Source of the DNA: an uncultured Candidatus Saccharibacteria bacterium
GTDB lineage: Bacteria > Patescibacteriota > Minisyncoccia > Minisyncoccales > MHMH01
DNA length: 64,000 bases
Assembly: GCA_964568775.1 (NCBI GenBank)
Contig: CAZMQW010000004.1
Location: 164-64,163 of the forward strand
Direction: 5' to 3'
Shown: in pieces, positions 43,752 to 58,645 of the stretch
Numbering within the stretch: position 1 is the stretch's first letter
Layout of the letters: each line of letters opens with the position of its first letter
Position numbers and translations under genes: made by a program
Notes under the pieces: generated by a model
Database searches by the model: none
What the model was told of the DNA's origin: nothing
Seen by the model: the letters and a program-made list of their open reading frames with translations, nothing else

Positions 43752-44255
43752 CTAACGGCTCTTTTTTATAACTTTATCTTTACTTATTACTTCGGCAATC
43801 TGATGAATCTCCCAATTATACATGGTGTCGTCCTTTTCCAGACGGGCAAATTCTACTGCATCTTCTTTCTGGGTGAAATAAAGATAAGATAGAAAAGCCC
43901 GAGGGTTTAGACCGATAGGTCCGTCAGCCACAATATCCCAATTTCCCTTTGGCTGAGGCGAAAGAATCCCGAGATCAATCAAAAGGGAGTGCACTTTCTT
44001 TTTCTGGTCATGGAATCTTCCCATGGCAAAATGCTCATGGTAATGCGGCCAGTCAACCTTCGGTTTGTCATTAACTAAACTAATGAATCCTTTGGCGCTT
44101 TCCTCAAAGTCTTTTATCCACTCTTCCTTGGCGCAAGCGATGCAAGTTAAACCGTCTTTAAATATGGTTACCGACAGACCAAGGTAAATAAAAGAAATGT
44201 TCCGGTATTTCCCGGCCTTCGTGTCCTTACATTTCCAGCACAATCCTTTTAACAC
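43752..44255 (-). CDS. hypothetical protein (167 aa) with an N-terminal CxxC...CxxC module
   Basis: SD gaaaGGAGGaagaagGTG. CWKCKD...FIYLG...CIACAKEEW. Confidence 0.55.
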   Translation of the reverse strand: MLKGLCWKCKDTKAGKYRNISFIYLGLSVTIFKDGLTCIACAKEEWIKDFEESAKGFISLVNDKPKVDWPHYHEHFAMGRFHDQKKKVHSLLIDLGILSPQPKGNWDIVADGPIGLNPRAFLSYLYFTQKEDAVEFARLEKDDTMYNWEIHQIAEVISKDKVIKKSR

Positions 44256-44268
44256 CTTCTTCCTCCTT

Positions 44269-44640
44269 TCAACTATCTAAGTTTTCTAAGGCTTTAATAA
44301 AACTGAATTCCGGATACTTTGGCTTGCCGTCTTTATCTCGGATAACGCAATAAGCCTCAGGAATGGCGCAGAGACACTCGACCCATTTTCCACCGGCATT
44401 GCAGTATTGCTTATCACCCTCTATTTTATAGAAGTCGCAGACACCGAAATCAATCTTGTAGGCTTTTTGGAGATAATAAACTAACTGTCGGGCAGACATC
44501 GGATCCCATAGCCAGGCCCCTGGCAGAAGCTCCATTAACTTATCCAGTCTTTCTTTGACGCTGCCAGCTTGTCGCAGGGCTTCAATTAATTCCTTATTCT
44601 CTTCAATCTGTTTAATTGCCTCTTGAACCTGATTTGCCAT
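44269..44640 (-). CDS. hypothetical Cys-containing protein (123 aa)
   Basis: SD ttaaGGAGGtttaaaATG. Confidence 0.55.
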   Translation of the reverse strand: MANQVQEAIKQIEENKELIEALRQAGSVKERLDKLMELLPGAWLWDPMSARQLVYYLQKAYKIDFGVCDFYKIEGDKQYCNAGGKWVECLCAIPEAYCVIRDKDGKPKYPEFSFIKALENLDS

Positions 44641-44742
44641 TTTAAACCTCCTTAATAATAAGAACTATATTAATAGCTATTTTTAACATCAGTCAACTAA
44701 AAAATCAAGTCTTTTATACTTGATTAACTTCAGACTAACAGA

Positions 44743-44979
44743 CTAAATTTTGGTTATTTTTGATTTGGCTTTTTTAATTTGAGTAGGTTTTTCCAGCAAC
44801 CTTCCTTTGTGCAGCTTATATAAAAGCGGGATTACACCGCAGTCCTTACATCTTCCCCAGCCGCACTTTCCTCTGCCTTTTTTTGATAGTTGCCTGCACA
44901 AAGCAATTTCCCTATTAAAAACATTCTTATTAATAATGTTCTTCTTTAGCCCTGTTTTACAGGTTATTTTCTTTTTCAT
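44743..44979 (-). CDS. small basic Cys-rich protein (78 aa)
   Basis: CRQLSKKGRGKCGWGRCKDCGVIPLLYKL. ATGA overlap with the CYTH gene. Confidence 0.5.
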   Translation of the reverse strand: MKKKITCKTGLKKNIINKNVFNREIALCRQLSKKGRGKCGWGRCKDCGVIPLLYKLHKGRLLEKPTQIKKAKSKITKI

Positions 44980-45497
44980 GGTTTTACTTTTGAATAATTG
45001 TATTTCTCCAAGAAAGATTTGATGTCCGAGTATTTCTTCCCCGACAAAAAACCACCAGCCATGAACTCTTCCTGGGTAACGTCGGCCAAACAGAAATCCG
45101 GCATTTTAAAATTCGCTTTTTCTTCGGCTGAGTTAAACTCAAAATCCGCTAAAGCCAAGCCTGCCAGATCGTCTAGGAAAACATCAATTTCCGCCATTGT
45201 ATTATTTACTGGATAAAAATACCTGATTTTCCTTACTCTTTTACCTTTCAATTTGGACAATCCCTCAAATTCTTTTTCTGAAATAGGAATGTTATATTCG
45301 TGATGCTCCGATGCATCATTGGCTGCAATTGGAAACTTCTTGGTAATCTCGTAATTGTCTCCCTGCCGGCGGATCCGTAAAGTCGGATGCACCGCTGATT
45401 GAGGAATGTAAATATCAAGCACCTCGACTGATTTGCAGTTTTTCAAATCCTTTGGCATTTCCTTGAGTAGAAATGTTCTCTCTAATTCTAACTCCAT
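44976..45497 (-). CDS. CYTH-domain (triphosphate tunnel metalloenzyme) protein
   Basis: The N-terminal LELERTFLL corresponds to the ExExK signature, and the length is ~170 aa. TGCTAGAAT lies 7 nt upstream of the ATG. Confidence 0.7.
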   Translation of the reverse strand: MELELERTFLLKEMPKDLKNCKSVEVLDIYIPQSAVHPTLRIRRQGDNYEITKKFPIAANDASEHHEYNIPISEKEFEGLSKLKGKRVRKIRYFYPVNNTMAEIDVFLDDLAGLALADFEFNSAEEKANFKMPDFCLADVTQEEFMAGGFLSGKKYSDIKSFLEKYNYSKVKP

Positions 45498-45502
45498 ATA
45501 TT

Positions 45503-45826
45503 TTATTCTAGCAGAAAAACGTCTGCTCGACGAATTATTATAATTAAAAAAAGGACGGGCTTGGAGGCAAAGTAGCGAGACTCCGAGTGCTCGTAAAATA
45601 ATTCGGCTGCACTTCCGTCTCCCCAGTTAATGCTGCCGACGCAGTGCATTACGGCCAAACGCGGACTCGTAAATACTACCCATAAAGGCAGATAATACCG
45701 GTGGGCATCTATCAGGCCTATTAAAACCTCCTTCTTACATTCTCTTTCGGCTTCCTCAACTTTTTCATCTTTGAGCTTTTCAAATTGCTCGGTGAATAGC
45801 TGGGAAATACTTGTCTTTTTGGACAT
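45503..45826 (-). CDS. hypothetical protein (107 aa)
   Basis: SD aaaaaGGAGGagaaATG. Confidence 0.5.
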   Translation of the reverse strand: MSKKTSISQLFTEQFEKLKDEKVEEAERECKKEVLIGLIDAHRYYLPLWVVFTSPRLAVMHCVGSINWGDGSAAELFYEHSESRYFASKPVLFLIIIIRRADVFLLE

Positions 45827-45895
45827 TTCTCCTCCTTTTTATTTATGAAGTTGTTCGGGTGCAACGGGATTCTTTATCCTACCGCATCTCATGAG

Positions 45896-45930
45896 AAAAT
45901 CAAGTCCGTCCGTCTCTATATTGTCAGACG
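45896..45930 (-). repeat. island intergenic element, copy a
   Basis: Plus strand: aaaatcaagtccgtccgtcTCTATATTGTCagacg. Confidence 0.5.
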
Positions 45931-46010
45931 CAAAATAAAAAGGTACTGACATTATGCCAGCACCTACTCGAATATCCCTTTAAGTGTTTTATGCCACTCC
46001 CTTGATTCAG

Positions 46011-46613
46011 CTAACCAAATAATTCTTTCATCATCTTCTTGATGTCTTCTGATTGGCCAACCTTTTTGGTCACCCCGTTTGTCGTTTCCGAATAGCTTAT
46101 GGAAACGACGGGTGTCGTGTGATGAACGTTCGCGCGCGACCAGATGTTTTCGACCGTTTCAAGCTTTCTGATCTCCTGAATTTCTTCCTGACTGAAATAG
46201 TTCAGAAGCATTGTTTTGCCCGTGCGCAGTAGCATTATCGCGGCATAGGTAAACGGGAGATCCGTTCCCTCTTTGAAAACCGGCCGGTGCAGAGCTAACT
46301 GTTTCTGAAGGGGCGCAACGAGAGAAGACGTTTTCTCCAAAGGCTCGCCCAGCATGTAAACCGCTCCGCTCTCCGTTTGGACCCTTATGGCCTTATCGAC
46401 AAACTCTTGAGGCACGAGCCGCCAAACGGCTCCTAAGGGTTTGGCTATCCCGGTCTCGTCGAAATCCACCATTCTTGCAATCCAGCATTCGAAACAAAAG
46501 TGCCCTGAAATATTCTGGGGAACCATCTCGCCGTAATAGATGAAACTGCAGCCCTTGAAACCGCAATCATCGCATAACATTTCTGGGAAATATCCCCTTT
46601 TTGTATCAGCCAT
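46011..46613 (-). CDS. hypothetical protein (200 aa) with an N-terminal CxxC...CxxC module
   Basis: SD gcaaGGAGGtggataATG. CDDCGFKGCSFIYYG...CFECW. Confidence 0.55.
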   Translation of the reverse strand: MADTKRGYFPEMLCDDCGFKGCSFIYYGEMVPQNISGHFCFECWIARMVDFDETGIAKPLGAVWRLVPQEFVDKAIRVQTESGAVYMLGEPLEKTSSLVAPLQKQLALHRPVFKEGTDLPFTYAAIMLLRTGKTMLLNYFSQEEIQEIRKLETVENIWSRANVHHTTPVVSISYSETTNGVTKKVGQSEDIKKMMKELFG

Positions 46614-46706
46614 TATCCACCTCCTTGCATAGTTGACTTATCGCTTTATTTAAAAAGAAAGGTTTTTCTTCCTCCTTACTAATTTGTATATTAAACAATC
46701 CATCTT

Positions 46707-46741
46707 AAAAATCAAGCTCCGACTGTCTATATTGTCGGATG
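46707..46741 (-). repeat. island intergenic element, copy b
   Basis: Plus strand: aaaaatcaagctccgactgTCTATATTGTCggatg. Confidence 0.5.
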
Positions 46742-46794
46742 TAAAAATAAAATGGGCAGGGATGTCATATAACTTCCCTGCCTTTGTTTGTTGG

Positions 46795-47832
46795 TTAGTA
46801 TAGAGTAACATTCTCCGGGTTATACAGTTCGGTAATTGACTGGCCCAAGACTGTCCTTTTGACGGCTTCGGCAAGCAAAGATTCTACCCACAGCACGACG
46901 AACTTGGACCTGCCGGAAATCATTTGAGCGGTGTTAGGTATGCTGTTGGTGACGACGAACTTCTCTATGGATGAAAATTCCAGTTTCCGAATCAAGCTGT
47001 CTTTGGCCATTTTTTTGTCGGCAAAGACGGCATGAGGAGCTATCATCCAAACCGATCGGCCGCCCTCTTCTAAGACCTTGGCCGCGTCTTTGATAGCGGT
47101 CTTGCCGGTCAGGATTTCATCGTCAATCATCAGACAGAACTTGTCTCCGACGTCGCCGATAATGCCCTTAATTTCCGGCTCTTCCCGGTCATCGCGCCTG
47201 CCCTTGTCAATGTAGGCTGTCGGAATATGCAGAAGTCTAGCAAAGTCACTGTAGCGCTTGCTCGCTCCTTCATCGGGAAAAACGAGCACGCTTTCTTCTT
47301 TCGGCTGGAAGGTGAAAACGTTTTTTTCCAGATAATCAAGCAGAATGTAAATGCTTGTTATCTCGTCAGCCACCGGATCGAAGTAGTGTTTAAGATGATC
47401 GTCGTGAGGATCAAGCAGCAGAATCCGGTTGATGCCGAAAGAATAATTCAGGATGTGAGCCAGGCGATAGGCCATAGTGGAAATGCGGGGCTGATTCTTT
47501 TTGTCCGACCTGGCGTAAGGATAGTAAGGAAAGACAACCAGAATGTCGGCTGGCCTGGCGCCCTTCAAGGCGTCAAGAAGCGCAAAAAGCTCAATTATCC
47601 TCTCGTTGACCGGCGGCACTTGGGTATGAATCACCACTACGAAATGGTCCCGGACGTTTTCCACCCGCACTTGGAGATTTTCATTACTGAAGCGAGCAAC
47701 CTGACTTCTCCCCAGCTTTAGGCAACCGTCTGCTTGCAGGTTTTTAGGTAAACGGGTTTGCAAAGCTTTGCAGATTTCTTTTGCCAAGACATCAGAACCT
47801 CTCGTGCTAAAAACCTTAACAGGATACGGCAT
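46795..47832 (-). CDS. prs: ribose-phosphate pyrophosphokinase family protein (divergent)
   Basis: VFPYYPYARSDKK and MIDDEILTGKT correspond to the Prs Y(F/A)RQDR and PRPP-binding loops. SD atGGAGGGAGGaaaagaatATG. Confidence 0.8.
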   Translation of the reverse strand: MPYPVKVFSTRGSDVLAKEICKALQTRLPKNLQADGCLKLGRSQVARFSNENLQVRVENVRDHFVVVIHTQVPPVNERIIELFALLDALKGARPADILVVFPYYPYARSDKKNQPRISTMAYRLAHILNYSFGINRILLLDPHDDHLKHYFDPVADEITSIYILLDYLEKNVFTFQPKEESVLVFPDEGASKRYSDFARLLHIPTAYIDKGRRDDREEPEIKGIIGDVGDKFCLMIDDEILTGKTAIKDAAKVLEEGGRSVWMIAPHAVFADKKMAKDSLIRKLEFSSIEKFVVTNSIPNTAQMISGRSKFVVLWVESLLAEAVKRTVLGQSITELYNPENVTLY

Positions 47833-47948
47833 ATTCTTTTCCTCCCTCCATTATTAATTTAGAACCATCCTTTATGGTTCTTTTGAATCTTGCCACTTTC
47901 TAACTGTTTTGTCCACCTCCCTTTAAATCAACTTTGTACAAGATGCAA

Positions 47949-47984
47949 CTTCCGTAACTCAATCCCTGTTATGTCGTGTAATGT
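47949..47984. repeat. 36-nt repeat R1
   Basis: cttccgtaactcaatccctgttatgtcgtgtaatgt, identical to R2 at 33 of 36 nt. Confidence 0.6.
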
Positions 47985-48074
47985 TATCTGATGGTCAGGA
48001 GGTCGTTCGGCCTACCTGATGCACTGATAGTTAAGGGAGGGCCTCCGACCCACTAGATGAGTTGTGGGATAATC

Positions 48075-48113
48075 TACAAAAAAGCTCCAATCAAGTATGT
48101 GTGATTTGGAGCT
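48075..48113 (-). terminator. intrinsic terminator
   Basis: AGCTCCAA (48083-48090) pairs with TTGGAGCT (48106-48113). T6 follows on minus. Confidence 0.7.
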
Positions 48114-48132
48114 ATTATTCTGGTTATCCCTT

Positions 48133-48582
48133 TTAGGGACGCAATATAACCCTTTTAATGGCGTGCAAAGGGACTCTCCAACTGGTGCCAGCGAAATTGA
48201 CTTCAACCTTTTTATTTTTATCTTCTTTATCTGGTGCTCTGAGATACTGGGCCACGAGACAGAAACTTATATCTGGATTTTCCAATATCCCTTCCGCTCT
48301 TATTTTCTCGGTTTTTTCCTTGGCGCCGGCGATCATAGCCCAGTCAGAATATCCTTTACAATTAGCAACAGCGCTGATGTCAACCTCTAAAAAAATTCTG
48401 GCGTCTTTGCTTATCTTGCCGCAGTAGCAATGGACCGATAACCGAAAAATGTGGCAGATTTCTTGATTTACAAGGTTCTCGTGGATAGACCTCCGCAGTT
48501 CGTCTTACTCTTTCTTAGGCCTTCCTTGCCAGCTAAGAACATCTAAATCAATACAGTGAAACCACGCTGAATTTTGAGCCAT
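48133..48582 (-). pseudogene. 150-codon reading frame with a strong SD, interrupted by an in-frame TAA at codon 26
   Basis: aaaGGGAGGaaaatcaaATG at 48582. MAQNSAWFHCIDLDVLSWQGRPKKE, then TAA (48507-48505), then DELRRSIHENLVNQ...MIAGAKEK... in the same frame. No ATG, GTG or TTG occurs between 48504 and 48336. Confidence 0.5.
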
Positions 48583-48637
48583 TTGATTTTCCTCCCTTTA
48601 TAGAATTCGCTAAAAGTAGTTTACAGTATTTCAATAA

Positions 48638-48661
48638 GAAAAGTCAACTCCGACCGTCTAT
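48638..48661 (-). repeat. island intergenic element, proximal half (copy c2)
   Basis: Plus strand: gaaaagtcaactccgaccgtctat. Confidence 0.45.
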
Positions 48662-48663
48662 GG

Positions 48664-48699
48664 CTTCCGTAACTCAGTCCCTGTTTTGTCGTGCAATGT
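48664..48699. repeat. 36-nt repeat R2
   Basis: cttccgtaactcagtccctgttttgtcgtgcaatgt. Confidence 0.6.
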
Positions 48700-48722
48700 A
48701 TTAGGATAATCAGACGGTTAAT

Positions 48723-48748
48723 CCGCCGTCCGTCTATATTGTCGAATG
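48723..48748 (-). repeat. island intergenic element, distal half (copy c1)
   Basis: Plus strand: ccgccgtccgTCTATATTGTCgaatg. It shares ccgtctat with c2, 62 nt away. Confidence 0.45.
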
Positions 48749-48814
48749 TAAAATAAAAGGGCCGTGTGGTTTCTACGAGGAAAGCACGGCCTTAATAAAC
48801 AATCCCTTTTTATA

Positions 48815-49390
48815 TTATCTCGTATTTATTATCCTTTCACCGGCATCTTCGGGCAGGTTCTTGCCACCGGGACCAATAATTCTCATGGGCAACCGCTTCA
48901 CACCGCCGGATTTTGCTATTTCCTCCATCTGCTTTTTTATTTCAGTGAAGCGAGGATCTTCTTTGGGCGGTACGTATGAGGGGCCGATGACCATCCGCCA
49001 TTTCTTATGGGAGGGACACGATGGCGAAGGACAATCTCCAGGGCTTCCTGCTATTTCGGAGTAATGACAGTCTGCACAATGGACGGTTCCTCCGATAACT
49101 CCCGGCGGACCCATGCTGTACCAGTGCTCACCGAGATACCATATCAGCAGCTCAATCGTCTCTAGAAACTCCTTTCGCGTTTTGCTGTCGAACGATTTCA
49201 GGGTAACGTTCTTGTCGTGAAGCTCAAAAAGAGCATCCTGGATTTTATTTTCGATACTGATTCGCTTCACTCCTTTAAGCCTGTTCAGCAACATTACCGT
49301 TTTGACGCGAAGGCCTTTGGGCAGATCGTTTACTTTATCTCCGTCTACCCTGCTTTCCCTGACATTATCTTCCACTCTTATGATTTGCAT
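48815..49390 (-). CDS. hypothetical protein (191 aa) with a Cys/His cluster
   Basis: SD aaaaGGAGGctaagcgATG. HCADCH...CPSPSCPSH. Confidence 0.55.
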   Translation of the reverse strand: MQIIRVEDNVRESRVDGDKVNDLPKGLRVKTVMLLNRLKGVKRISIENKIQDALFELHDKNVTLKSFDSKTRKEFLETIELLIWYLGEHWYSMGPPGVIGGTVHCADCHYSEIAGSPGDCPSPSCPSHKKWRMVIGPSYVPPKEDPRFTEIKKQMEEIAKSGGVKRLPMRIIGPGGKNLPEDAGERIINTR

Positions 49391-49487
49391 CGCTTAGCCT
49401 CCTTTTATTGCGATATATTTTTAAATCTACGCGTTCTCTTTCACGCCGTCTGTCCGAAAGAATAAAGAGTTCTTTTTTTCGCCCCTT

Positions 49488-49721
49488 TCAATCATCATGG
49501 CGTTCCATTTTTATTCCCGGCTGGAAACGACCTTCGTACACAAGACGATCCCTCTTTCTGCAACGGGGGCAATAGGCAAATATTTTAGGGGTTACTTTTT
49601 CTTTTTTCTCTTCCCCTAGACGTAATGCGCCGTTGCAATCTTTGCAGGTTTTTTCTCCGGCAATCTCTATTTTCACATCTTCCAAACCGAGAGATCTGGC
49701 TATTTTTTTAAAGTTCGGCAT
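49488..49721 (-). CDS. small zinc-ribbon protein (77 aa)
   Basis: SD taaGGAGGtgagataATG. CKDC...CPRC. Confidence 0.55.
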   Translation of the reverse strand: MPNFKKIARSLGLEDVKIEIAGEKTCKDCNGALRLGEEKKEKVTPKIFAYCPRCRKRDRLVYEGRFQPGIKMERHDD

Positions 49722-49758
49722 TATCTCACCTCCTTATATCAAATTACACAATCCTGAT

Positions 49759-49795
49759 AAAAAAACAAGTCCTCCCGTCCTATGTTGCCGGATAT
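49759..49795 (-). repeat. island intergenic element, copy d (variant)
   Basis: Plus strand: aaaaaacaagtcctcccgtcctatgttgccggatat. Confidence 0.4.
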
Positions 49796-49836
49796 AAAAA
49801 AGCCAGCTGGCCCCGGCTCCAATCACCCCGACTAAT

Positions 49837-51709: not shown

Positions 51710-51760
51710 AAATTTCAGTAAAACTACTTTAATTTTATGTTCTTAAAACGTCCATGTCAA

Positions 51761-51784
51761 AATAAAAACCGCCGAAAGGCGGGG
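51761..51784 (-). terminator. intrinsic terminator
   Basis: CCGCC gaaa GGCGG (51769-51782) with a T-run on minus. Confidence 0.7.
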
Positions 51785-51829
51785 TGATCAAGGCCAAGCC
51801 TTAACCAATGAACGTTTGTTATTGAATCA

Positions 51830-52045
51830 TTATTTCTCTTCCCTGCTGATTTCCTGTTTTTCTTTAGTGCTGAGAGACGTCAGCCAGAAAATGAAAGGCC
51901 GGCGCAGTTTGTCTATGGACCAATTGTTATCTTTGAAAAGGGACGCCTTAGCCACCTTGAAATGAGACAGCAAAGAGGGGGTCGCCTGCAGGTTGTCAGA
52001 AGCCAATCGGTTGTGTTCCTCTAAAAATTGCTGTTTCTTGGTCAT
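51830..52045 (-). CDS. hypothetical protein (71 aa)
   Basis: TATTAT lies 6 nt upstream of the ATG. No family recognised. Confidence 0.45.
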   Translation of the reverse strand: MTKKQQFLEEHNRLASDNLQATPSLLSHFKVAKASLFKDNNWSIDKLRRPFIFWLTSLSTKEKQEISREEK

Positions 52046-52064
52046 GCTTCTATAATACGCTTAT

Positions 52065-52367
52065 TCACGAAAAAAGCAATACCGCCGGTTCGAGACTAAA
52101 AAACCTTGAATAAAATAAAAAGTGGGTCGGTGTTACCGCTCCACTTCTCTTGAAAACTAAGGGACCTGCCCTTTCCAGCTTCTTCCAGGCTTCTAACTCT
52201 TTTTGATGTCTTTCTTCTATTCTGGCGTCTACCGCAATTGCATAGTTCATTTCAAACTGACGGAGCTTTTCATGGTCAATCGGTTCGGTAAACTGAATGG
52301 CGGAACCGCATATTCTTACCGCCGAACCCTCTTTAACTGCTTCCTGACAAGCCTTAGCAAGATTCAT
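52065..52367 (-). CDS. hypothetical protein (100 aa)
   Basis: SD taaGGAGGtattaacaATG. Confidence 0.5.
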   Translation of the reverse strand: MNLAKACQEAVKEGSAVRICGSAIQFTEPIDHEKLRQFEMNYAIAVDARIEERHQKELEAWKKLERAGPLVFKRSGAVTPTHFLFYSRFFSLEPAVLLFS

Positions 52368-52417
52368 TGTTAATACCTCCTTATAATAGGTCTAATTCTA
52401 TAATGCGCTTTATAATT

Positions 52418-52453
52418 GAAAAATCAAGTCCGGCCGGAATTATATTGCAAGGC
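52418..52453 (-). repeat. island intergenic element, copy g (variant)
   Basis: Plus strand: gaaaaatcaagtccggccggaattatattgcaagg. Confidence 0.45.
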
Positions 52454-52514: not shown

Positions 52515-52859
52515 TTAGATCCCCTTCTTTTCCTTGTCGTACTTTCTCCAAGCTTCGGCGATAGACGGCTCAACTTTGTCCAGCTCCGCCAGGGTCTTTT
52601 CCCTGAGTTCCGAGGTGGTTATCTCTTCTTGGCTCTCAGCCAGCTGGATTATGGTTGAGGCCACCTGCTCGGCCACTTCGTTCTTCCTCTCCTCCGGCAG
52701 ATCGGCTTCGCGGGCGGCGGCCAGGATTGAATTCTTTATTTTTTCGGGGGCAAAGGGCTGCCTTATCCCGTCTTTTTTAGTAACTTCTTTAGCCATAATG
52801 GATGAATATTTGTTTAATTTAGAACTGCGACCTTTTTTGAGAATACTTAATTTTCCCAT
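52515..52859 (-). CDS. stand-alone ATP-cone domain protein (start uncertain: 52859 or 52796)
   Basis: VTKKDGIRQPFAPEKIKNSILAAAREADL...EITTSELRE resembles the ATP-cone of NrdR and RNR. Confidence 0.55.
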   Translation of the reverse strand: MGKLSILKKGRSSKLNKYSSIMAKEVTKKDGIRQPFAPEKIKNSILAAAREADLPEERKNEVAEQVASTIIQLAESQEEITTSELREKTLAELDKVEPSIAEAWRKYDKEKKGI

Positions 52860-53277: not shown

Positions 53278-53297
53278 GAAAAGTCAAGGTTATAAAA
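53278..53297 (-). repeat. island intergenic element, copy h (promoter-proximal part only)
   Basis: Plus strand: gaaaagtcaaggttataaaa. Confidence 0.3.
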
Positions 53298-53359: not shown

Positions 53360-54544
53360 TTAATAGGACACGGCTGCTTCTTTGAATGCAGCTTCGATGT
53401 CTTCTTGCAAGGCCGGGATATCAGCCACTACTGAATAACGGATGTAGTCGCCGAAATGGACTCCGACAGCGCCGGTCTTTTCAATCATGGCGAAGTTGAA
53501 GTCTTCGGAACTCTGTATTTCCCGTCCAAGTGCTTCTTTGGGCGTCTGCCAGAACGTATAGAAAGTGGAATGTGGCTCAACTACTAATCTCATGCCGTAT
53601 ATCTTCAGCAGATTAATCAGCAACTGCCGTTTGTCCCGGTAAGCCCTAACGCACCGGCCTATGCCTTCTTGGTCATTCCTGATGGTATTGAGCACTCCGG
53701 CCGCCATAGCCGAGACAAAACCGCTATCGGTATTGCCCTTAATGGTTTTGAGGTTGCCGATGAAGTCGGGCGAACCGGCCATGGCGCCGACCCGCCAGCC
53801 GGTACCGTTAGCGATCAGTTTTGAGGCCGAATAACCGGTTATCCATGACAGCTTCGGGAAGTGAGGCGCCACATCGGTCAAGGAACAGTTCTCGGGGCCG
53901 AAGTTATGGGACAGGTAAGCTTCGTCATCGAATATCCTTATTCCTTCCTGGGCGCAGAAATCGCAAAGTTCTTTCCACCAGTTGAAGTCAACCGTCTGGC
54001 CGCTCGGGTTGTGGCCGCCGTAATTGAGCATTAGCAGGTTGACGCCCGGCTCAATGTCGTTAACGGAAAAACGGAAAGAGTTTTCCGGATTAAGCGGCAA
54101 TTCCTGTACCGGCACTCTTAGATAACGACACCAGTCCTTGGGTGTGGGATAGCCGGGGAAGGTCATGGCCGCGACCTTAACAGGTCTGCCGTCAAGGTAC
54201 GAACCGCAGGCCAAAGGAATTAACCCCAGCATTGCCTTAATGCCCGGTATGGGTAAAAAGTCCGCGTCTATATCAGATAAAGGTACGCTGGTGTGATACT
54301 GAGCGAACTCCTTGGCAAAGTGAGGTAGGGGCGGACAACCGTTGTCCGCATATTCGTGCCACACCTCTTCCTTGCTTTTGATCGCGTTTGACGCTTTCAG
54401 TCTGGCGCTCCAGAGAGCGGGACCGGTCGGCTGACCGATAGAAAGTTTAATGGGTTTTATCCCCTGCGCTACTGCTTCATTTGTCTTTTCTTTAATTCTC
54501 TGGAATAGGTTTTCTCCTCCGGGTGGTAACCATGATGGTAACAT
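53360..54544 (-). CDS. class I/II PLP-dependent aminotransferase (LL-diaminopimelate-aminotransferase-like; specificity unknown)
   Basis: HNPSG and the PLP-lysine context YSASK. ~394 aa. SD aaaaaGGAGGtatgtaagATG. Confidence 0.75.
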   Translation of the reverse strand: MLPSWLPPGGENLFQRIKEKTNEAVAQGIKPIKLSIGQPTGPALWSARLKASNAIKSKEEVWHEYADNGCPPLPHFAKEFAQYHTSVPLSDIDADFLPIPGIKAMLGLIPLACGSYLDGRPVKVAAMTFPGYPTPKDWCRYLRVPVQELPLNPENSFRFSVNDIEPGVNLLMLNYGGHNPSGQTVDFNWWKELCDFCAQEGIRIFDDEAYLSHNFGPENCSLTDVAPHFPKLSWITGYSASKLIANGTGWRVGAMAGSPDFIGNLKTIKGNTDSGFVSAMAAGVLNTIRNDQEGIGRCVRAYRDKRQLLINLLKIYGMRLVVEPHSTFYTFWQTPKEALGREIQSSEDFNFAMIEKTGAVGVHFGDYIRYSVVADIPALQEDIEAAFKEAAVSY

Positions 54545-54560
54545 CTTACATACCTCCTTT

Positions 54561-55865
54561 TTATTTACTTGGTTTCAGGATGTCCTTTTCGAATTCCAGC
54601 GTGGCGAAGAGGTCCTCAATCGTTTCGGCTCGCCGGATCAGTTCAACGCTGCCGTCGGGGTGCAGTAACAGCTCTTTGATTCTCAACCAACCGTTGTAGT
54701 TGGAACACATGCCGGGACTGTGCGCGCCAACGTCGTGCTGAAGCATAAAGTCGTTAACTTCGGTATTCTTGGGCAGAAGTCTGCGTTTGGCGAAATAGTC
54801 GTTGTCTTCACAAAGCGATCCGTGGACGTTAAACACTCCCTGGCTACCTTTTTTGCATTCTTTAAGCCGGCAGTCAGAATCAAGGATATCAATATGATGA
54901 TAAGCTGTCTTGGGATAAACGGCCGGTCGCGGGTTAGCTGCCAAAGTACAGGTGTCAACGCCAATTAGCTTATGGTATTTTTTTGTGCGTTGAATCACTC
55001 TAGCTACCAAGGCGCCATGGGGGCCGGTCATTAAACGACCGCACTCCATAAACAATCTCGGTGCATACCCGTGCTTCTCTTTGAACTTATACAGCAGCTT
55101 TCCAGATTCTCTGGCCAGGCCCGGCAAATTGAATGGTTTTTCGCTGGGGCGATAAGGAATGCCGATTCCGCCCCCGATATTGAAAAACTCAAATTTGATA
55201 TTGAGTGCTTCGGAAACCATTTCAATAACCTGTAACAACATCTTGACCGTTTGCACCATGTAACGAAGCCTCCGTTCGTTGGATATTATCATGGTGTGTA
55301 TGCCGACATGCTTGGCTCCCCTCTCAATCGCCCGGCGGTACGCCTCAACGATATTCTCATGAGGAACGCCGTATTTAGAATCATACGGATTGCCAATAAA
55401 TCCGGTACCGGTGCGCCGCTTGCCCGGGTTATACCTGAAGCAGATGAGCTTGGGAAACTTCAGCACTCTGTCAATCATTTCTTCCGCATCCAGATTCAGA
55501 ATGCAACCGCCGTCAGCCGCCGCCAACTCAAATAACTCATCAGAAGTATTGTTTGAGGTCAGCATTAAGTGGGTGGGCGGTATCTTTTGCTCGCGCATTG
55601 ATATCAGCTCTGACGGAGAACTGCAGTCAAACCCGAAATCCTGCTCCTGGTACATCAATCTGGCTATTACCGAAGCATTGGGCCAGGCTTTGACAGCGTA
55701 GTATTCTTGGAAGCCGAAGATAGGATCCTGGAAACAGGCTTTCAATATTCTCGCTTCGTCACGTATCCCCTGTACATCGAAAATGCGAAAGGGCGTGCCG
55801 TAATGCTGGATAACTTCTGGCAGAACTGGCAACAGACGTTCTTTGAACGCTTTTGACATAGGCAT
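54561..55865 (-). CDS. fold-type III PLP decarboxylase (diaminopimelate/ornithine/carboxynorspermidine decarboxylase family)
   Basis: YAVKAW (PLP Lys), GGGIGIPY, CEDND, and HDVGAHSPGMCSNYNG. Confidence 0.8.
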   Translation of the reverse strand: MPMSKAFKERLLPVLPEVIQHYGTPFRIFDVQGIRDEARILKACFQDPIFGFQEYYAVKAWPNASVIARLMYQEQDFGFDCSSPSELISMREQKIPPTHLMLTSNNTSDELFELAAADGGCILNLDAEEMIDRVLKFPKLICFRYNPGKRRTGTGFIGNPYDSKYGVPHENIVEAYRRAIERGAKHVGIHTMIISNERRLRYMVQTVKMLLQVIEMVSEALNIKFEFFNIGGGIGIPYRPSEKPFNLPGLARESGKLLYKFKEKHGYAPRLFMECGRLMTGPHGALVARVIQRTKKYHKLIGVDTCTLAANPRPAVYPKTAYHHIDILDSDCRLKECKKGSQGVFNVHGSLCEDNDYFAKRRLLPKNTEVNDFMLQHDVGAHSPGMCSNYNGWLRIKELLLHPDGSVELIRRAETIEDLFATLEFEKDILKPSK

Positions 55866-55916
55866 AGTCTTTATCTCCCTTCCTTTATTTTTTACTTAAA
55901 GTGCTTATATATTAAA

Positions 55917-55973
55917 AGGAGGGTTAATCCTCCTGCTAATTCTGTATATTAATCAGATAAATGGATTAGTCAA
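55917..55973 (-). promoter_or_regulatory. promoter plus SD/anti-SD-like leader hairpin of the decarboxylase-aminotransferase operon
   Basis: On minus: TTGACT (55973-55968), 16 nt, TAATAT (55951-55946). In the leader, AGGAGG gattaa/ttaatc CCTCCT (55917-55934) is followed by TTTTAAT. Confidence 0.45.
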
Positions 55974-56011: not shown

Positions 56012-56039
56012 TTGACATATTTGGAATAAAGAGTATAAT
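56012..56039 (+). promoter_or_regulatory. consensus sigma70 promoter
   Basis: TTGACA (56012-56017), 16 nt, TATAAT (56034-56039). Divergent from the promoter at 55946-55973. Confidence 0.55.
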
Positions 56040-56143: not shown

Positions 56144-56332
56144 ATGGAATTCAAGAAATTTGGCGACAGGCCCAAAAGAGATTTTGCCCCCAGAGAAATG
56201 GTTAAAGGAAGCTGGAAATGCGCCGACTGCGGTGCTGAAATAACCGAGCTTCCGTTTGAACCATCTGGCGACAGGCCGATCTATTGCCGGGACTGTCATT
56301 CTAAGCGAAGAGCCCAAAGATTTGGACGCTAA
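56144..56332 (+). CDS. small CxxC-x17-CxxC zinc-ribbon protein (62 aa)
   Basis: WKCADCGAEITELPFEPSGDRPIYCRDCH. Confidence 0.65.
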   Translation: MEFKKFGDRPKRDFAPREMVKGSWKCADCGAEITELPFEPSGDRPIYCRDCHSKRRAQRFGR

Positions 56333-56683: not shown

Positions 56684-57496
56684 TTACTTAATCAGTTTTC
56701 TGAGTCTTATCACTTTCCAGCCAACCAAGCCAAGCGATACCACCAAGGCAAAGAGAACACAGGCCACACCTTCAAACATAGAGATGTATTCATGTCTTAC
56801 CCGTTGGATGTAAGCCGTCAGGTTATTGAAATCAGTTACCCGGGCTGTCTCCAAAACTTGAATCTGGGCATTAAGCTGGGCAGTCTGGCTGTCTACAGTT
56901 CGCTGGTTAACATCAACGCGGTAGGACAAATCATCAATGGATTGCTCGTTGATTGCTATGTGTGTCTCGGCTCCGTAGACAACTTTGTCCATTATCTTTT
57001 CGTCCTCTTGTTCGCTCTCCTTTGTGACAATCGCCAATCGGAGACCAAGCTTATCTAATCTCGCTGTTAGTTGGGTAGTTTGGTTATCTAAGGTTTGTTT
57101 CCCAATAATCAACTTGGTGATTGCATCCATTGATAACCCTGTAAGTTCCCGTAGTTCAGCTATCTGGCCTTCGATTCTCGGTCCTATTCCTGTAATCTTC
57201 CAGTAGTAGACGTAATCATACATTCCATTACCATTCATATGTTGAATGATATATTGGTTCATCTGGTCCTGAACAACCGCCACTTGCTGTTGACTGGCCA
57301 TTGGCGCTCCGTTGATGTCAAATGATACATCACCGCCGGCATTTATGTCAACGTCGAAGTCCACATCGCCAGGGGTCACTACGGCCACATCAACGTCTAC
57401 GCCTGGTGGCGGATCATCAGCAAATGCGGGCACGCTTACCCCTAAACATACTACCAGTACCAGGAGAACGGCTAGACTTTTTAATAGGTGTTTCAT
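56684..57496 (-). CDS. secreted, C-terminally anchored coiled-coil protein (270 aa)
   Basis: Start at MKHLLKSLAVLL after the SD gaaaGGAGGttgttgtATG. Signal peptide, (V/I)D(V/F)D repeats, Q-rich heptad-like region, and a terminal TM segment plus RLRKLIK. Confidence 0.6.
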   Translation of the reverse strand: MKHLLKSLAVLLVLVVCLGVSVPAFADDPPPGVDVDVAVVTPGDVDFDVDINAGGDVSFDINGAPMASQQQVAVVQDQMNQYIIQHMNGNGMYDYVYYWKITGIGPRIEGQIAELRELTGLSMDAITKLIIGKQTLDNQTTQLTARLDKLGLRLAIVTKESEQEDEKIMDKVVYGAETHIAINEQSIDDLSYRVDVNQRTVDSQTAQLNAQIQVLETARVTDFNNLTAYIQRVRHEYISMFEGVACVLFALVVSLGLVGWKVIRLRKLIK

Positions 57497-57627
57497 ACAA
57501 CAACCTCCTTTCTTATATATTTTTTTCGGTTTGCCATTCGTTTTCAAGCATCATCTCCTTATCGGTCGTTATTTTTATGTTAAAGGGCTAATTACCCTGT
57601 TAAAAAGGGAATAATTATCAATGTTTA

Positions 57628-57656
57628 ATTTTAACACACCAGAGAGTTTCTGTCAA
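57628..57656 (-). promoter_or_regulatory. promoter of the 56684 gene
   Basis: On minus: taaatccTTGACA, 17 nt (gaaactctctggtgtgt), TAAAAT. Confidence 0.5.
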
Positions 57657-57667
57657 GGATTTAAAAA

Positions 57668-57708
57668 GAAGAAGGGCTGGAATGAATTGAATCGATTCCA
57701 GCCCTTTT
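57668..57708 (-). terminator. intrinsic terminator
   Basis: GGGCTGGAAT (57674-57683) pairs with ATTCCAGCCC (57695-57704). A T-rich run follows on minus. Confidence 0.7.
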
Positions 57709-57760
57709 GAAGTTATTTGCTTCTTGGAAAGCTCGGGGAGCAAATTTCCCGGGTGCTAGT

Positions 57761-58645
57761 TTACCATGCCTTTGTCGAAAAATCAGGCATACTGAAGTTG
57801 CTGACAAAGTCGGCGACGATGTTGAGCATGGCACCGAAACCAGTATCAGTAGCTGTTATCGTGGGAAGACCACTGACGTCAAGACTACCTAGCCAGTTAA
57901 AGGCACCGCTGGTGGAGCCTGTCATCGAAATGTTATTGAATGTGACTCCGTTGTTGCCAAGGCCGTAGAGATTGAATGTGCCGATACCTACTGCGTTAAA
58001 GTCAGCATTCGTGTAGCAACCACAACCTTCACCTAATCTTACCTGTCCTGCGCTGGCTTCTGCGTTCATGCAGTCAAGATCAGCATCCCCGGTACCGCCA
58101 GCCCATAGACCGGCGAAATTAACATTGCCGCTGTCCATGGATCTCTCAAGGTAATAGCTGTCTGCACCGGTTACAGTGATATGGTCGTTGGCATTCCATC
58201 CGTAGTTACAGTCCTTCATGCTGGCATAATTGGTCGCAGATCTGTTCTGGAGAGTAGCCGAGCCATTCATAATCTCAACGTAGGTATAGGAGTTCTGTCC
58301 GGCCGCGCCATAAGAAGTTTTGGCGTCTGTCCTCTCTACGTTCAGCGAAGCTTGACCAAAACCGGTGATGGCGGTTTCCAGGGTAAAGGAGTTTGAATCA
58401 ACGCCATAGTTGTAGGGATTATCGTTGCTGTCGGTAGCATGGAATTCGCCCACATGATTGCTGCCCCCAGAATGGAAGTTCGCGTTAGCGTCTCCGGTGT
58501 CAACCGTCCCATCAACAATTCCTGCTCCGCCCCAGGTTACATCCACCTGCGTTGGGTCAGCGGCCAGGACGGCGCCGGTAAGAGCCGTCGTCATCAGGAT
58601 AACCAGGGTAAGTGTACTAAGAATCCTGAAAAGTCCTTTTTTCAT
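57761..58645 (-). CDS. secreted Gly/Asn/Thr/Ser-rich protein (294 aa), unknown family
   Basis: SD aaGGAGaaGGAGaataaggaaATG. Signal peptide ending VLAADP. Beta-rich composition. Confidence 0.6.
   Translation of the reverse strand: MKKGLFRILSTLTLVILMTTALTGAVLAADPTQVDVTWGGAGIVDGTVDTGDANANFHSGGSNHVGEFHATDSNDNPYNYGVDSNSFTLETAITGFGQASLNVERTDAKTSYGAAGQNSYTYVEIMNGSATLQNRSATNYASMKDCNYGWNANDHITVTGADSYYLERSMDSGNVNFAGLWAGGTGDADLDCMNAEASAGQVRLGEGCGCYTNADFNAVGIGTFNLYGLGNNGVTFNNISMTGSTSGAFNWLGSLDVSGLPTITATDTGFGAMLNIVADFVSNFSMPDFSTKAW

Follow-up and report, generated by a model that had tools for sequence, protein, structure and literature searches.

Shine–Dalgarno-led accessory genes between SD-less core genes in a Parcubacteria-like genome

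Gene content of the island and its isolated counterparts

The analysis covered one 64-kb stretch of DNA (hereafter, the window) and about 130 kb of contig fragments from relatives (designated by L numbers), rather than whole genomes. Shine–Dalgarno (SD) sites were scored as the RNA duplex energy, in kcal/mol, between positions −20 to −4 and the canonical anti-SD CACCUCCUUUC, and genes are named here by their lower coordinate. The region from 43.7 to 58.6 kb, referred to as the island, contains genes on the minus strand only, save for 56144, as the first-pass annotation had described. Its features, followed by five isolated SD-led genes from elsewhere in the window, are as follows.

43752–44640, minus: two-gene SD-led orphan operon, 44269–44640 (123 aa), then 43752–44255 (167 aa)
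44743–45497, minus: SD-less pair within the island, 44976–45497 (173 aa) and 44743–44979; no Pfam match
45503–45826, minus: SD-led orphan, 107 aa (SD −12.2)
46011–46613, minus: SD-led orphan, 200 aa, with CxxC...CxxC (SD −15.7)
46795–47832, minus: prs, class I ribose-phosphate pyrophosphokinase; Pfam and PDB matches (SD −13.6)
47833–48814, minus: gene-poor spacer of 982 nt with repeats, a mini-ORF and the doubtful ORF 48133–48336
48815–49721, minus: two SD-led orphans with separate leaders, 49488–49721 and 48815–49390
49837–50865, minus: HTH, HATPase and DUF4325 protein, SD-less; backbone gene, 66% identical in L007
51026–51334, minus: SD-led orphan, 102 aa (SD −12.4 at the +15 start, 51334)
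51431–52045, minus: SD-less genes, acylphosphatase 51431–51709 and 71-aa gene 51830–52045
52065–52367, minus: SD-led orphan, 100 aa (SD −12.5)
52515–52859, minus: ATP-cone protein, SD-less backbone gene, present in L007
52917–53237, minus: SD-led orphan, 106 aa (SD −16.5 at the +39 start, 53237)
53360–55865, minus: SD-led two-gene operon with Pfam and PDB matches (SD −11.2 and −13.6)
56144–56332, plus: treble-clef zinc-finger gene, SD-less, present in L007
56684–58645, minus: two SD-led monocistronic genes, 57761–58645 (294 aa) and 56684–57496 (270 aa)
2304–2972, plus: SD-led orphan, 222 aa; promoter CTTGACTTTT at 2232–2241, terminator present
14821–15267, plus: SD-led orphan, 148 aa, in the dcw cluster between 13527–14783 and the murD-like 15337
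19540–19971, plus: SD-led orphan, 143 aa, four Cys, between murG and gltX
24186–24734, minus: SD-led orphan, 182 aa; promoter TTGACTTTTT, terminator present
30047–30283, plus: SD-led gene for a small membrane protein of 78 aa, between rpmA (L27) and pyrG

The operon 44269–43752 is preceded by a single promoter (CTTGATTTTT, 44700–44709) and closed by a terminator 3′ of 43752; its genes have SDs of −12.3 and −14.4 and no Pfam or PHROG match, and the 43752 product carries CxxC...CxxC at its N-terminus. Gene 44976 has TGCTAGAAT 7 nt before its ATG, a leaderless geometry, and is overlapped by 44743–44979 through an ATGA stop/start. It is abutted by 45503, which has a junction repeat and promoter at 45895–45931 and lacks its own terminator. 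The leader of 46011, a member of a six-member family with 56–100% identity, contains a second AAGGAGG and a 5-codon uORF (46608–46630) overlapping the SD, while that of prs, about 85 nt long and conserved at the DNA level, contains a hairpin at 47862–47880. The spacer at 47833–48814 holds 64-nt direct repeats (47949–48012 and 48664–48727, 77% identical), a split junction repeat and an SD-led mini-ORF of 25 codons (48505–48582), and gave no Rfam match.

Among the orphans at 48815–49721 (SD −15.4 for 49488 and −12.2 for 48815), the first encodes a zinc-ribbon-like protein of 77 aa and the second a 191-aa protein of a seven-member family, with invariant Cys105, Cys108, Cys120, Cys125 and His128. 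Repeated TTGACAAC motifs lie upstream of 49837, and CTTGACTTTT promoters precede 51026 (51405–51414) and 52917 (53279–53288). SD-less 51830 has TATTAT 6 nt before its ATG and is conserved, likewise without an SD, in L005 and L007. In the operon 54561–53360, a diaminopimelate-decarboxylase-like gene (54561–55865), whose leader has a hairpin AGGAGGattaacCCTCCT followed by a T-run (55911–55934), precedes a class I aminotransferase gene (53360–54544). The zinc-finger gene 56144 has a perfect TTGACA-16-TATAAT promoter at 56012–56039. Genes 57761 and 56684 (SD −9.7 and −15.8, the latter at start 57496) are each followed by a terminator and have no Pfam match; both products have hydrophobic signal-peptide-like N-termini, that of 56684 also having a coiled coil and a C-terminal hydrophobic segment, and they are predicted, from reading by eye rather than with a prediction tool, to be secreted or membrane proteins.

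Three stretches depart from the single-gene cassette plan: the operons 44269–43752 and 54561–53360 and the terminator-less 45503. A decayed serine-recombinase fragment, proposed at 56.4 kb, received no Pfam support.

Two classes of genes in the window

The SD duplex energies at annotated starts in the window are bimodal. Nineteen genes reach −9.7 kcal/mol or lower, at the annotated start or 15–51 nt inside the longest ORF; the remaining annotated starts score −6.9 or weaker, except for the doubtful TTG ORF 22969 (−8.5). SD usage is not uniform: SD-led genes make up 14 of 22 between 43,752 and 58,645 and 5 of 68 elsewhere (Fisher p = 2.4e-7). Fourteen of the fifteen island genes originally listed as SD-bearing were recovered, 48133 having only AAGGA 20 nt upstream, as were all five isolated ones. 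The motif AGGAGG is not over-represented window-wide (39 copies versus 33.5 expected), and 15 copies versus 0.25 expected lie 5–13 nt 5′ of starts. Across 33 genes from seven genomes, the SD consensus is AAGGAGG(T), with a modal spacing of 6–8 nt.

The two classes also differ in content. Pfam matches were found for 3 of 19 SD-led versus 47 of 60 SD-less genes (p = 1.6e-6), and the association of SDs with orphans persists when only the 45 genes preceded by a gap of at least 50 nt are considered. SD-led genes mostly encode small, Cys-rich proteins, the exceptions to the small-orphan rule being prs and the decarboxylase/aminotransferase pair. Compositional deviation was partial: codon usage of SD-led genes is flatter and modestly shifted from that of core genes (p ~ 0.002), with no significant difference in GC or GC3.

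The lack of SDs in the named housekeeping genes was borne out, and their starts are backed by homologues aligning from residue 1–2. Several core genes have TTTTGGTAGAAT 6–7 nt before the ATG, a leaderless geometry. The motif TTTTGGTANRAT has six matches in the window versus about 0.2 (0.22) expected, five of them 6–7 nt before an ATG:

368–379, plus: TTTTGGTAGAAT, promoter of leaderless type; ATG (387) follows after 7 nt
13508–13519, plus: further copy, motif match
38904–38915, minus: further copy, motif match
40715–40726, minus: further copy, motif match
43708–43719, minus: further copy, motif match
35445–35456, minus: sixth copy; nearest annotated start lies about 70 nt downstream

The strict motif occurs at only about 7–9 core genes, and a relaxed TANNNT shows modest enrichment 5–9 nt before starts; further SD-less core genes overlap the preceding stop codon or follow A-rich sequence. 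Judged from these sequence features, the SD-less core mRNAs are probably leaderless or SD-independent.

Most SD-led genes have a promoter with a −35 box of the CTTGAC plus T-run type and a leader of mostly 20–60 nt. CTTGAYTTTT occurs seven times in the window versus 1.3 expected, six copies lie upstream of SD-led genes, and this −35 type was not found at leaderless-type core promoters. Of the 19 SD-led genes, about 14 are followed by a GC hairpin and TTTTATTTT terminator on direct reading of the flanks. The claim that most island genes have their own promoter and terminator is supported to this extent, although a generic scan showed no enrichment.

Comparison with relatives

The same split was observed in L019, L022 and L023, whose contigs carry independent gene calls: an SD precedes 1 of 28 genes with and 12 of 20 genes without a Pfam match (p = 1.9e-5). 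SD-led and leaderless-type promoters both recur in relatives' contigs. The two translation-initiation regimes proposed for this genome, evident from the bimodal energies and the clustering, are real and common to close relatives.

SD status follows the gene rather than the region, for four reasons. First, three relatives in which prs has different neighbours (L004, −10.2; L005, −14.2; L006, −13.1) retain its SD. Second, SDs are kept in the 46011 family in L019 and L022, with dS > 1 (saturated) and dN/dS of 0.12–0.18, and in the 48815 homologue in L023 (−14.9). Third, 56144, 52515, 51830 and 49837, which have no SD in the island, have none in L007 either. Fourth, SD-led genes share a promoter type missing from SD-less ones. 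The near-perfect SD of 46011 orthologues despite saturated synonymous sites, and of prs down to 55% identity, points to selection in the recipient lineage.

In L007, the SD-less backbone is syntenic, and the SD-led orphans 52917, 52065, 51026, 49488 and 48815 are individually missing. Gene 52065, with a 53% identical homologue elsewhere in L019, sits between the ATP-cone gene and 51830, which are adjacent to each other in L007. It is flanked on both sides by 37-nt direct repeats (52396–52432 and 52048–52084) that duplicate the promoter of 51830; they are identical at 27 of 37 positions versus 22 of 37 for the next-best intergenic match, and the duplication is significant. Outside the island, a homologue of 14821 is missing in L008, L009, L010 and L011, the flanking genes abutting in L008 and L010; 19540 is likewise missing from the dcw clusters of these four, murG and gltX being adjacent in L009 and L011; and rpmA and pyrG abut in L004, where 30047 is absent.

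The prs gene is 89% identical to that of L004 with a pS of 0.42, versus 70% and 0.75 for pyrG, and core genes are 47–70% identical; prs is 89% and 85% identical to Parcubacteria and Nealsonbacteria MAGs, respectively. The homologues found for the SD-led units are few, the only taxon-named match being a Parcubacteria MAG and the others metagenome contigs. In more distant relatives (~59% identical proteins), 63 kb of sequence contained virtually no SD-led genes, and the class may therefore be confined to a subclade.

Origin of the SD-led units

We consider it probable that this genome, apparently of a Ca. Nealsonbacteria-like member of Parcubacteria, runs two expression architectures in parallel, and that the island is a hot spot of units gained piecemeal. 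Core genes lack an SD, and many start 6–8 nt after an extended −10 element (T-run-TGGTAGAAT) with no −35 box. The second, a minority class, has a promoter composed of a G-rich stretch, CTTGAC/T, a T-run and, after about 17 nt, a −10 box, followed by a leader, a short ORF whose ATG lies 6–8 nt after AAGGAGG(T) and, in most cases, a hairpin-TTTTATTTT terminator. Such units would have accumulated singly between the backbone genes (zinc finger, ATP-cone, 51830, HATPase and prs, all SD-less except prs), and likewise between core genes elsewhere, as in the dcw cluster and between rpmA and pyrG.

The SD-led mRNAs would use ordinary 30S/anti-SD initiation, and the 16S rRNA would therefore be expected to keep CCUCCU; against this, the share of Parcubacteria with a detected anti-SD motif was only 48% (Tsurumaki et al. 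2022, PMC9297842). Since core genes tend to have their own start-proximal promoters, an insulated unit could land without polar damage, and the two classes might be controlled separately via promoter recognition and initiation. The SD-led units are "moron-like" self-contained accessory cassettes, small, lineage-restricted and with fast turnover. Their indel pattern, codon shift and the 89% identity of prs support piecemeal gain rather than acquisition as one island and suggest some lateral exchange; given the codon usage and the similarity of prs to that of L004, many units may be of foreign or laterally exchanged origin. Of the two readings initially offered, a dedicated expression class fits better, in view of gene-level SD retention and the shared promoter type.

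Alternatively, the SDs could be relics of SD-using donors (other bacteria, CPR phages or plasmids), the units having arrived piecemeal with donor promoter and ribosome-binding site kept and no host-selected class. The indels, the flatter codon usage, the prs and pyrG values and the scarcity of SD-led genes in distant relatives agree with this, as does 19540, a member of a family of 248 clusters, whose structure model (pLDDT 90) has no PDB analogue and resembles uncharacterised phage proteins (BFVD E = 1.4e-5). We nevertheless regard this origin as unlikely, considering the SD retention described above, the −35 motif typical of the lineage and the local junction repeats in place of heterogeneous donor promoters, the few homologues with their Parcubacteria match, the unchanged GC and GC3, and the absence of PHROG or IMG/VR relatives and of any match in 50,697 phage genomes.

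Two further readings concern a repeat family at 45895–52453 (minus strand), which sits between the −35 box and the terminator upstream of it, with the consensus TTTTATTTT-ACATCCGACAAYATAGAC.G.CGGAS-CTTGAYTTTT. A repeat search gave seven copies, all on the minus strand:

45895–45931: junction repeat
46707–46742: junction repeat
48725–48749 plus 48638–48663: junction repeat, split
49759–49793: junction repeat
50931–50974: junction repeat
51404–51430: junction repeat
52418–52453: junction repeat

A single transcription factor or alternative sigma factor could co-control the SD-led island genes by recognising a conserved element that overlaps the −35 box and extends upstream of it, the SD being incidental to the leader. 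Seven promoters at 45.9–52.5 kb share CAAYATAG-ACGG.CGGAS-CTTGAYTTTT, the HTH-HATPase-DUF4325 protein is encoded among them, and leaderless core promoters lack this −35 type. However, SD-led genes outside 45.9–52.5 kb lack the upstream portion of the element, as do relatives, which have other local repeats, and the indel pattern and orphan bias are left unexplained; such a regulon, which is compatible with the two-architecture explanation, seems quite improbable.

The co-oriented one- and two-gene units, the repeat of about 35–45 nt with imperfect dyad symmetry, the flanked cassette 52065 and the local junction-repeat families of relatives (L022) recall an integron-like array built by site-specific recombination at the repeat. 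We consider this very unlikely: no IntI-type integrase is nearby, the sole tyrosine recombinase (21944–22900) lies 21 kb away and is 81% conserved in L009, as expected for XerC/D, and the cassettes, unlike those of integrons, have their own promoters and terminators. The repeat is conserved in sequence, its inverted-repeat arms do not covary between copies and R″/R′ (RYYYAAC/GTTRRRY) cores were not seen (both by eye), and it is largely a terminator tail plus −35 consensus.

Occupation of 43.7–58.6 kb by one integrated mobile element (a prophage, an ICE or a genomic island) that came from an SD-using donor would agree with the co-oriented small unknown genes, the suspected recombinase remnant and a raised tetranucleotide distance. 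It is largely refuted and scarcely credible, since no integrase, att-like boundary, terminase, capsid, phage or defence signal or PHROG match was found, the whole window lacks tRNA genes, the L007 backbone is syntenic with SD-led genes individually missing, and identical units occur singly outside the island. Tetranucleotide distance is 0.16–0.175 in 15-kb windows starting at 44–49 kb versus 0.09–0.147 elsewhere, a shift that extends past the island to 64 kb. The island is located 20–35 kb from a terminus-like GC-skew switch.

Shine-Dalgarno sites and the genes that carry them

Non-overlapping ORFs were called in the window, and each in-frame start within the first third of an ORF was scored by the duplex energy of the −20 to −4 region with CACCUCCUUUC. 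The resulting Shine-Dalgarno (SD) energies were bimodal: 19 genes had values of −9.7 to −16.5 kcal/mol at the start, and the remaining annotated starts were weaker (−8.5 for 22969, a doubtful ORF beginning with TTG, and −6.9 or weaker for the others; genes are named here by the left coordinate of the ORF). For 51026, 52917, and 56684, the SD-linked ATG lies 15–51 nt inside the longest ORF. The SD-led genes are concentrated in the region 43752–58645, with 14 of 22 genes there versus 5 of 68 elsewhere (p = 2.4e-7). The first-pass annotation had listed 15 such genes in this region, and the duplex energies bore out its list of SD genes with the exception of 48133, a doubtful ORF of 67 aa without a properly spaced SD.

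Overall, the window shows no excess of the hexamer AGGAGG (39 copies observed versus 33.5 expected), but 15 copies, versus 0.25 expected, lie 5–13 nt upstream of a start. The consensus obtained from 33 SD-led genes of this and related genomes, A-A-G-G-A-G-G-(T) with spacing peaks at 6 and 8 nt, is that of a textbook SD, and the GGAGG-type motif 5–10 nt before the start is kept in orthologues, as in canonical initiation by SD/anti-SD pairing. Start-site artefacts do not account for the SD-less calls: most core-gene homologues in relatives align from residue 1–2, and strong internal 'SDs' are confined to positions deep inside conserved domains. Outside the region, the sequence GGGAGGTATTGTG-ATG is found at 62394–62409, 159 nt inside the ORF 62040–62555; this ATG could be the true start of a 118-aa protein and thus of an additional SD-led gene.

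Pfam scans, which covered 79 genes, yielded matches for 3 of 19 SD-led genes and 47 of 60 SD-less genes (p = 1.6e-6). The SD-led genes are overwhelmingly orphans, and the only ones with a Pfam match are prs, a class I aminotransferase, and a diaminopimelate-decarboxylase-like enzyme. Position within operons was rejected as the cause of the split, since the orphan bias persists among genes with spacers of at least 50 nt. Among the 45 genes taken with an upstream spacer of this length, those with a Pfam match comprised 21 SD-less and 2 SD-led genes, and those without comprised 12 SD-led and 5 SD-less genes; where the upstream gap was below 50 nt and the Pfam status known, there were 32 SD-less genes (25 with a Pfam match) versus 5 SD-led ones. 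The cysteine content is 2.1% in SD-led proteins versus 1.0% in the others. They do not form a paralogous family, as judged from an all-against-all BLASTP comparison, in which the sole likeness between SD-led proteins was a faint one of 43752 and 46011 in the N-terminal zinc-ribbon. An AlphaFold model of the 46011 family built from 6 sequences was unusable (pLDDT 37).

Just upstream of the region are a Fic/Doc and HTH pair resembling a toxin-antitoxin system and an Mrr-like restriction endonuclease gene with an ATP-cone domain (38926–39599 and 41615–42451, respectively). Both are SD-less, and the Mrr-like protein had no match in PADLOC.

Promoters, leaders, and terminators

Reading of the flanks revealed a common anatomy of the SD-led units: a GC hairpin and TTTTATTTT after the upstream gene are followed by a G-rich stretch, CTTGAC/T, a T-run, a −10 hexamer about 17 nt further on, and a leader of 20–60 nt carrying the SD. 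Each transcription unit has its own −35/−10 promoter and leader. These lineage-specific motifs were recognised by reading the flanks, and a generic promoter and terminator scanner detected no enrichment. The decamer CTTGAYTTTT occurs 7 times versus 1.3 expected, and 6 of the 7 copies are upstream of SD-led genes; the combination of CTTGAC/T with a T-run was never seen in the flanks read of SD-less genes.

Several SD-less genes are preceded by an extended −10 box without a −35 element, TTTTGGTAGAAT/TAAGAT, also written TTTTGGTANRAT (6 copies versus 0.2 expected). Five of the six copies end 6–7 nt before an ATG; for the sixth, at 35445–35456, the nearest annotated start is about 70 nt downstream. 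The motif TGNTANAAT was found 21 times versus 10.7 expected. A spacing of 6–7 nt between the −10 box and the ATG is, judging by sequence, the geometry that a leaderless mRNA would have, and the same geometry was seen in L019, L022, and L023, three of the loci of relatives (L004–L023) compared with the window, where TTTTTTGGTAGAAT adjoins the ATG of Pfam-matched genes. Because the enrichment of the relaxed pattern TANNNT at 5–9 nt was only modest, the number of firm leaderless candidates was put at 7–9. In other core genes, the start overlaps the stop codon of the gene before it, or the upstream sequence is rich in A.

Four leaders have features of their own:

3587–3706 (plus strand, within 3026–4634): L10 leader (RF00557) preceding rplJ-rplL; the gene upstream of it encodes a DJ-1/PfpI protein and is not rplK-rplA (uL1 is missing in some Parcubacteria).
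46608–46680 (minus strand): leader of 46011, in which AAGGAGGAA occurs a second time about 55 nt upstream, a copy also conserved in L019, together with a 5-codon uORF (MQGGG*); the codons of this uORF form the SD for the main ORF, and its stop codon overlaps the main ATG (TAATG).
47833–47920 (minus strand): about 85 nt upstream of prs conserved at the DNA level in L004, L005, and L007, which may be a regulatory leader; just before the SD it contains a perfect 7-bp hairpin, with 8 pairs in the predicted fold (47862–47880), and as a whole it folds slightly better than shuffled sequences (z −2.1).
55911–55934 (minus strand): hairpin AGGAGGattaacCCTCCT followed by TTTTAAT in the leader of the decarboxylase/aminotransferase operon, in which an SD-like sequence pairs with an anti-SD-like one; it resembles a terminator or attenuator, with a z of only −1.6.

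The L10 leader was the only Rfam match at the gathering threshold in the window, and nothing credible was found in the region 43752–58645 at E ≤ 1.

Distribution of the units among related genomes

The presence of an SD is a property of the genes and not of the region. The SD of prs is strong in L004, L005, and L006 (−10.2, −14.2, and −13.1), with different neighbours in each of them. For 46011, five homologues with 56–74% identity were found, and its SD is retained in L019 and L022 (−12.5 and −14.9), the former also having the second AAGGAGG of the leader. The dN/dS values of this family (0.12–0.18, with dS > 1) indicate a real protein under purifying selection, and its SD has been kept although synonymous sites are saturated. 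The same holds for the 48815 family in L023. In the gene calls of L019, L022, and L023, which are independent and were supplied by the collection, an SD precedes 1 of 28 genes with a Pfam match versus 12 of 20 genes without one (p = 1.9e-5). Essentially no SD-led genes were present in 63 kb of the more distant relatives L009, L010, L011, and L014 (about 59% protein identity); therefore, the SD-less state is the broader background, and the SD-led class marks a subclade.

In L023, a contig of 156 kb, a stretch of 1.5 kb without called genes (16060–17551) was rejected as an rRNA locus, since a scan found no rRNA. It contains several uncalled small ORFs with CxxC motifs; a clear SD precedes three of these, and most possess a promoter and a terminator of their own. 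Mini-cassettes of this kind are apparently overlooked by gene callers.

The region 43752–58645 is not one block. L007 preserves the order of genes for a zinc finger protein, an ATP-cone protein, 51830, a HATPase, and then prs; the SD-less backbone genes of the window are also SD-less there, and the SD-led orphans 52917, 52065, 51026, 49488, and 48815 are missing from this backbone. Outside the region, the genes flanking 14821 abut in L008 and L010, rpmA and pyrG abut in L004 at the site of 30047, and murG and gltX, which flank 19540, are adjacent in L009 and L011. The murG-gltX gap, empty in these two relatives, is filled in the window by 19540 together with an SD-less gene for a MazG-like NTP pyrophosphohydrolase (18920–19492; a second such gene is at 43206–43547), which means that inserted genes are not always SD-led. 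Around prs, each of the relatives examined has a different gene content and order, and the homologue of 52065 in L019 has different neighbours. A misassembled or chimeric contig was rejected: L004, L006, and L007 join prs to the same core genes, and the metagenomic contig of 64.7 kb is on record in NCBI and JGI.

Repeats were found at the junctions. Direct repeats of 37 nt, identical at 27 of 37 positions (22 of 37 for the next-best intergenic match), flank the 52065 unit. They are a duplicate of the leaderless-type promoter that serves 51830, the next gene downstream, and the copy on the upstream side would now drive an mRNA with a leader and an SD. A longer repeat, ACATCCGACAAYATAGAC.G.CGGAS-CTTGAYTTTT, is common to seven junctions between 45.9 and 52.5 kb, and L022 has a local family of junction repeats of its own. 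Upstream of prs there is a gene-poor spacer of 982 nt (47833–48814) with two 64-nt direct repeats (47949–48012 and 48664–48727; 77% identical), one of which splits a junction repeat, and an SD-led mini-ORF of 25 codons (48505–48582). Rfam gave no match for the spacer, which is perhaps the remains of a decayed cassette or the site of an RNA not yet recognised.

No sign of a prophage, ICE, or integron was seen. Besides a dedicated expression class, the first-pass annotation had suggested acquisition from an SD-using donor such as a phage or other integrated element; a single element of this kind is not supported, since in L007 the backbone is syntenic and the SD-led genes are absent individually. 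The remnant of a serine recombinase that it had placed at 56.4 kb had no Pfam match and was rejected, and neither a recombinase domain nor a boundary integrase was found among the ORFs of the region scanned with Pfam. The nearest recombinase is the XerC/D-like gene at 21944–22900, which is conserved in relatives, and no tyrosine recombinase lies within 20 kb. The window contains no tRNA gene, and no insertion of a single block at a tRNA/att site was found. No matches were obtained for 10 SD-led orphans of the region in PHROG, for 11 SD-led orphans in a tblastn search against 50,697 phage genomes, or for 10 proteins, seven of them in or flanking the region, in PADLOC; scans of IMG/VR for two families found no relatives.

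Codon usage deviates, being flatter in SD-led genes (L1 distance 3.44 versus 1.97 ± 0.36 for random partitions, p ~ 0.002). GC and GC3 do not differ significantly between SD-led and other genes, and the G+C content of about 0.36–0.49 throughout the window has no step at the claimed island. The tetranucleotide distance is moderately raised for windows starting at 44–49 kb and is still rising past the region to the window end. Two SD-less genes of low GC content at 59006–62080 contribute to the shift at the window end; they encode large predicted surface proteins with long acidic Glu/Thr-rich repeats (repeat families D1–D4) and fn3/purple-acid-phosphatase-N, lamin-tail, and camelysin-like domains.

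A gene pool that moves horizontally stays in play, in the form of single modules. The prs gene (46795–47832) is 89% identical to that of a 'Parcubacteria group' MAG and 85% and 55% identical to those of two Ca. Nealsonbacteria MAGs. Its closeness to the L004 copy (89% identity, pS 0.42), with adjacent core genes only 47–70% identical and a pS of 0.75 for pyrG, suggests that prs may have been exchanged recently among related lineages. The family of 19540 (19540–19971; 143 aa, four Cys) comprises about 248 clusters at 50% identity (E ≤ 1e-3) and has no Pfam model; its one named member is from a Parcubacteria MAG. The AlphaFold model of 19540 is confident (pLDDT 90) and had no analogue in the PDB at E < 0.1, but it shows a fold-level likeness to uncharacterised tailed-phage proteins in BFVD (E 1e-5 to 6e-4, TM 0.4–0.58).

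Possible meaning and likeness to known systems

The best reading of these data is a lineage-wide dual architecture, in which an SD-less and partly leaderless core would coexist with self-contained, SD-led 'moron-like' accessory units, this locus being a local hot spot of such units. From the sequence, we infer that core mRNAs are probably leaderless, that the 16S rRNA of the organism would carry CCUCCU, and that the two classes may be separately regulated. That a canonical SD at the correct spacing has been conserved beyond the point where synonymous sites are saturated speaks for a working anti-SD in the subclade. Scans of the window and of a single related locus, L023, found no rRNA gene.

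We consider it rather unlikely that the division is one of age and exchange, with an old core that is leaderless or SD-independent (extended −10 without −35) and a young, exchanged set of small zinc-binding or secreted proteins that is SD-dependent (−35/−10). If it were so, the accessory set, possibly involved in host interaction, could be switched globally through the ribosome or an initiation factor, or through a sigma factor, separately from the housekeeping genes. Relatives would then pass new genes among themselves as ready-made promoter-SD-ORF-terminator modules; since leaderless core genes have promoters of their own, such modules could insert at any site. A sharper variant of this reading would be a 16S rRNA without the anti-SD, as in about half of Parcubacteria, with AAGGAGG read by something else.

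The dual architecture suggests a route by which reduced genomes gain genes without disrupting compact clusters, and separate regulation of the two classes would make it a case in which partitioning of the proteome by initiation mechanism could be tested. Promoter type and SD together would provide a sequence marker separating core genes from recently gained or fast-evolving ones in an uncultured host-dependent lineage, where 'hypothetical' genes are the main unknown. For gene calling in CPR genomes, a single RBS model would mis-set starts in a mixed architecture.

Genomes in which leaderless and SD-led genes coexist are well known, among them 'group C' of GeneMarkS-2, which includes Mycobacterium, Streptomyces, and Deinococcus (Lomsadze et al. 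2018, PMC6028130). As in group C, many first genes have a Pribnow-type box, recognised here by sequence geometry, about 6–8 nt from the start codon, and leadered genes of the same genome have an SD at the same distance of 6–8 nt. However, group C models internal operon genes with an SD, while internal or closely spaced core genes of the window lack one and it is the leadered orphans that have it. In the window, nearly all SD use is by orphan or accessory monocistronic units with the −35-bearing promoter type, and the lineage belongs to the CPR, of which no taxon came up in a term search of PMC6028130. No description of leaderless/SD partitioning in CPR was found in the literature searched.

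Phage 'morons' are independent promoter-ORF-terminator units between phage genes (Cumby et al. 2012, PMC3594210). The units of the window resemble them in being small, self-contained sets of 1–2 ORFs of unknown function with their own promoter and intrinsic terminator, in lying between conserved neighbours, in their absence from related genomes, and in their mildly atypical codon usage. Unlike morons, they reside in a cellular chromosome among core genes (the dcw cluster, rpmA/pyrG, and prs) without a prophage context, and only the 19540 family is phage-like, at the fold level.

Arrays of integron cassettes and CALINs likewise consist of co-oriented short cassettes of unknown function with repeated junction elements between them. 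Here, however, no integron integrase was found, and the cassettes have their own promoters, SDs, and terminators rather than being mostly promoterless and driven from Pc. By eye, the junction repeats are conserved in sequence and consist mostly of a terminator tail and a −35 box; no attC-type structure or GTTRRRY/RYYYAAC core sites were seen in them.

SD-poor lineages, which include Bacteroidota, offer a further parallel. Core genes without SD, A-rich upstream regions, and the phylum-level context of Parcubacteria are shared with them, but a subset of genes in the window has near-perfect, conserved, and canonically spaced SDs. The anti-SD motif was detected in only 48% of Parcubacteria (Tsurumaki et al. 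2022, PMC9297842). Set against this frequent absence, the subclade evidently still selects SDs, only in a special gene class.

Variable DNA is common at replication termini, and the region 43752–58645, variable in gene content, lies 20–35 kb from a sign change of the GC skew and a switch of gene strand; unlike usual variable regions of this kind, it carries accessory genes that stand out by a translation-initiation signal of their own. The cumulative GC skew peaks at 21000–24200, where genes on the plus strand (1–22.9 kb) converge with those on the minus strand (23.3–64 kb), and this point looks like a replication terminus. The XerC/D-like tyrosine recombinase gene at the strand switch is 81% identical in L009.
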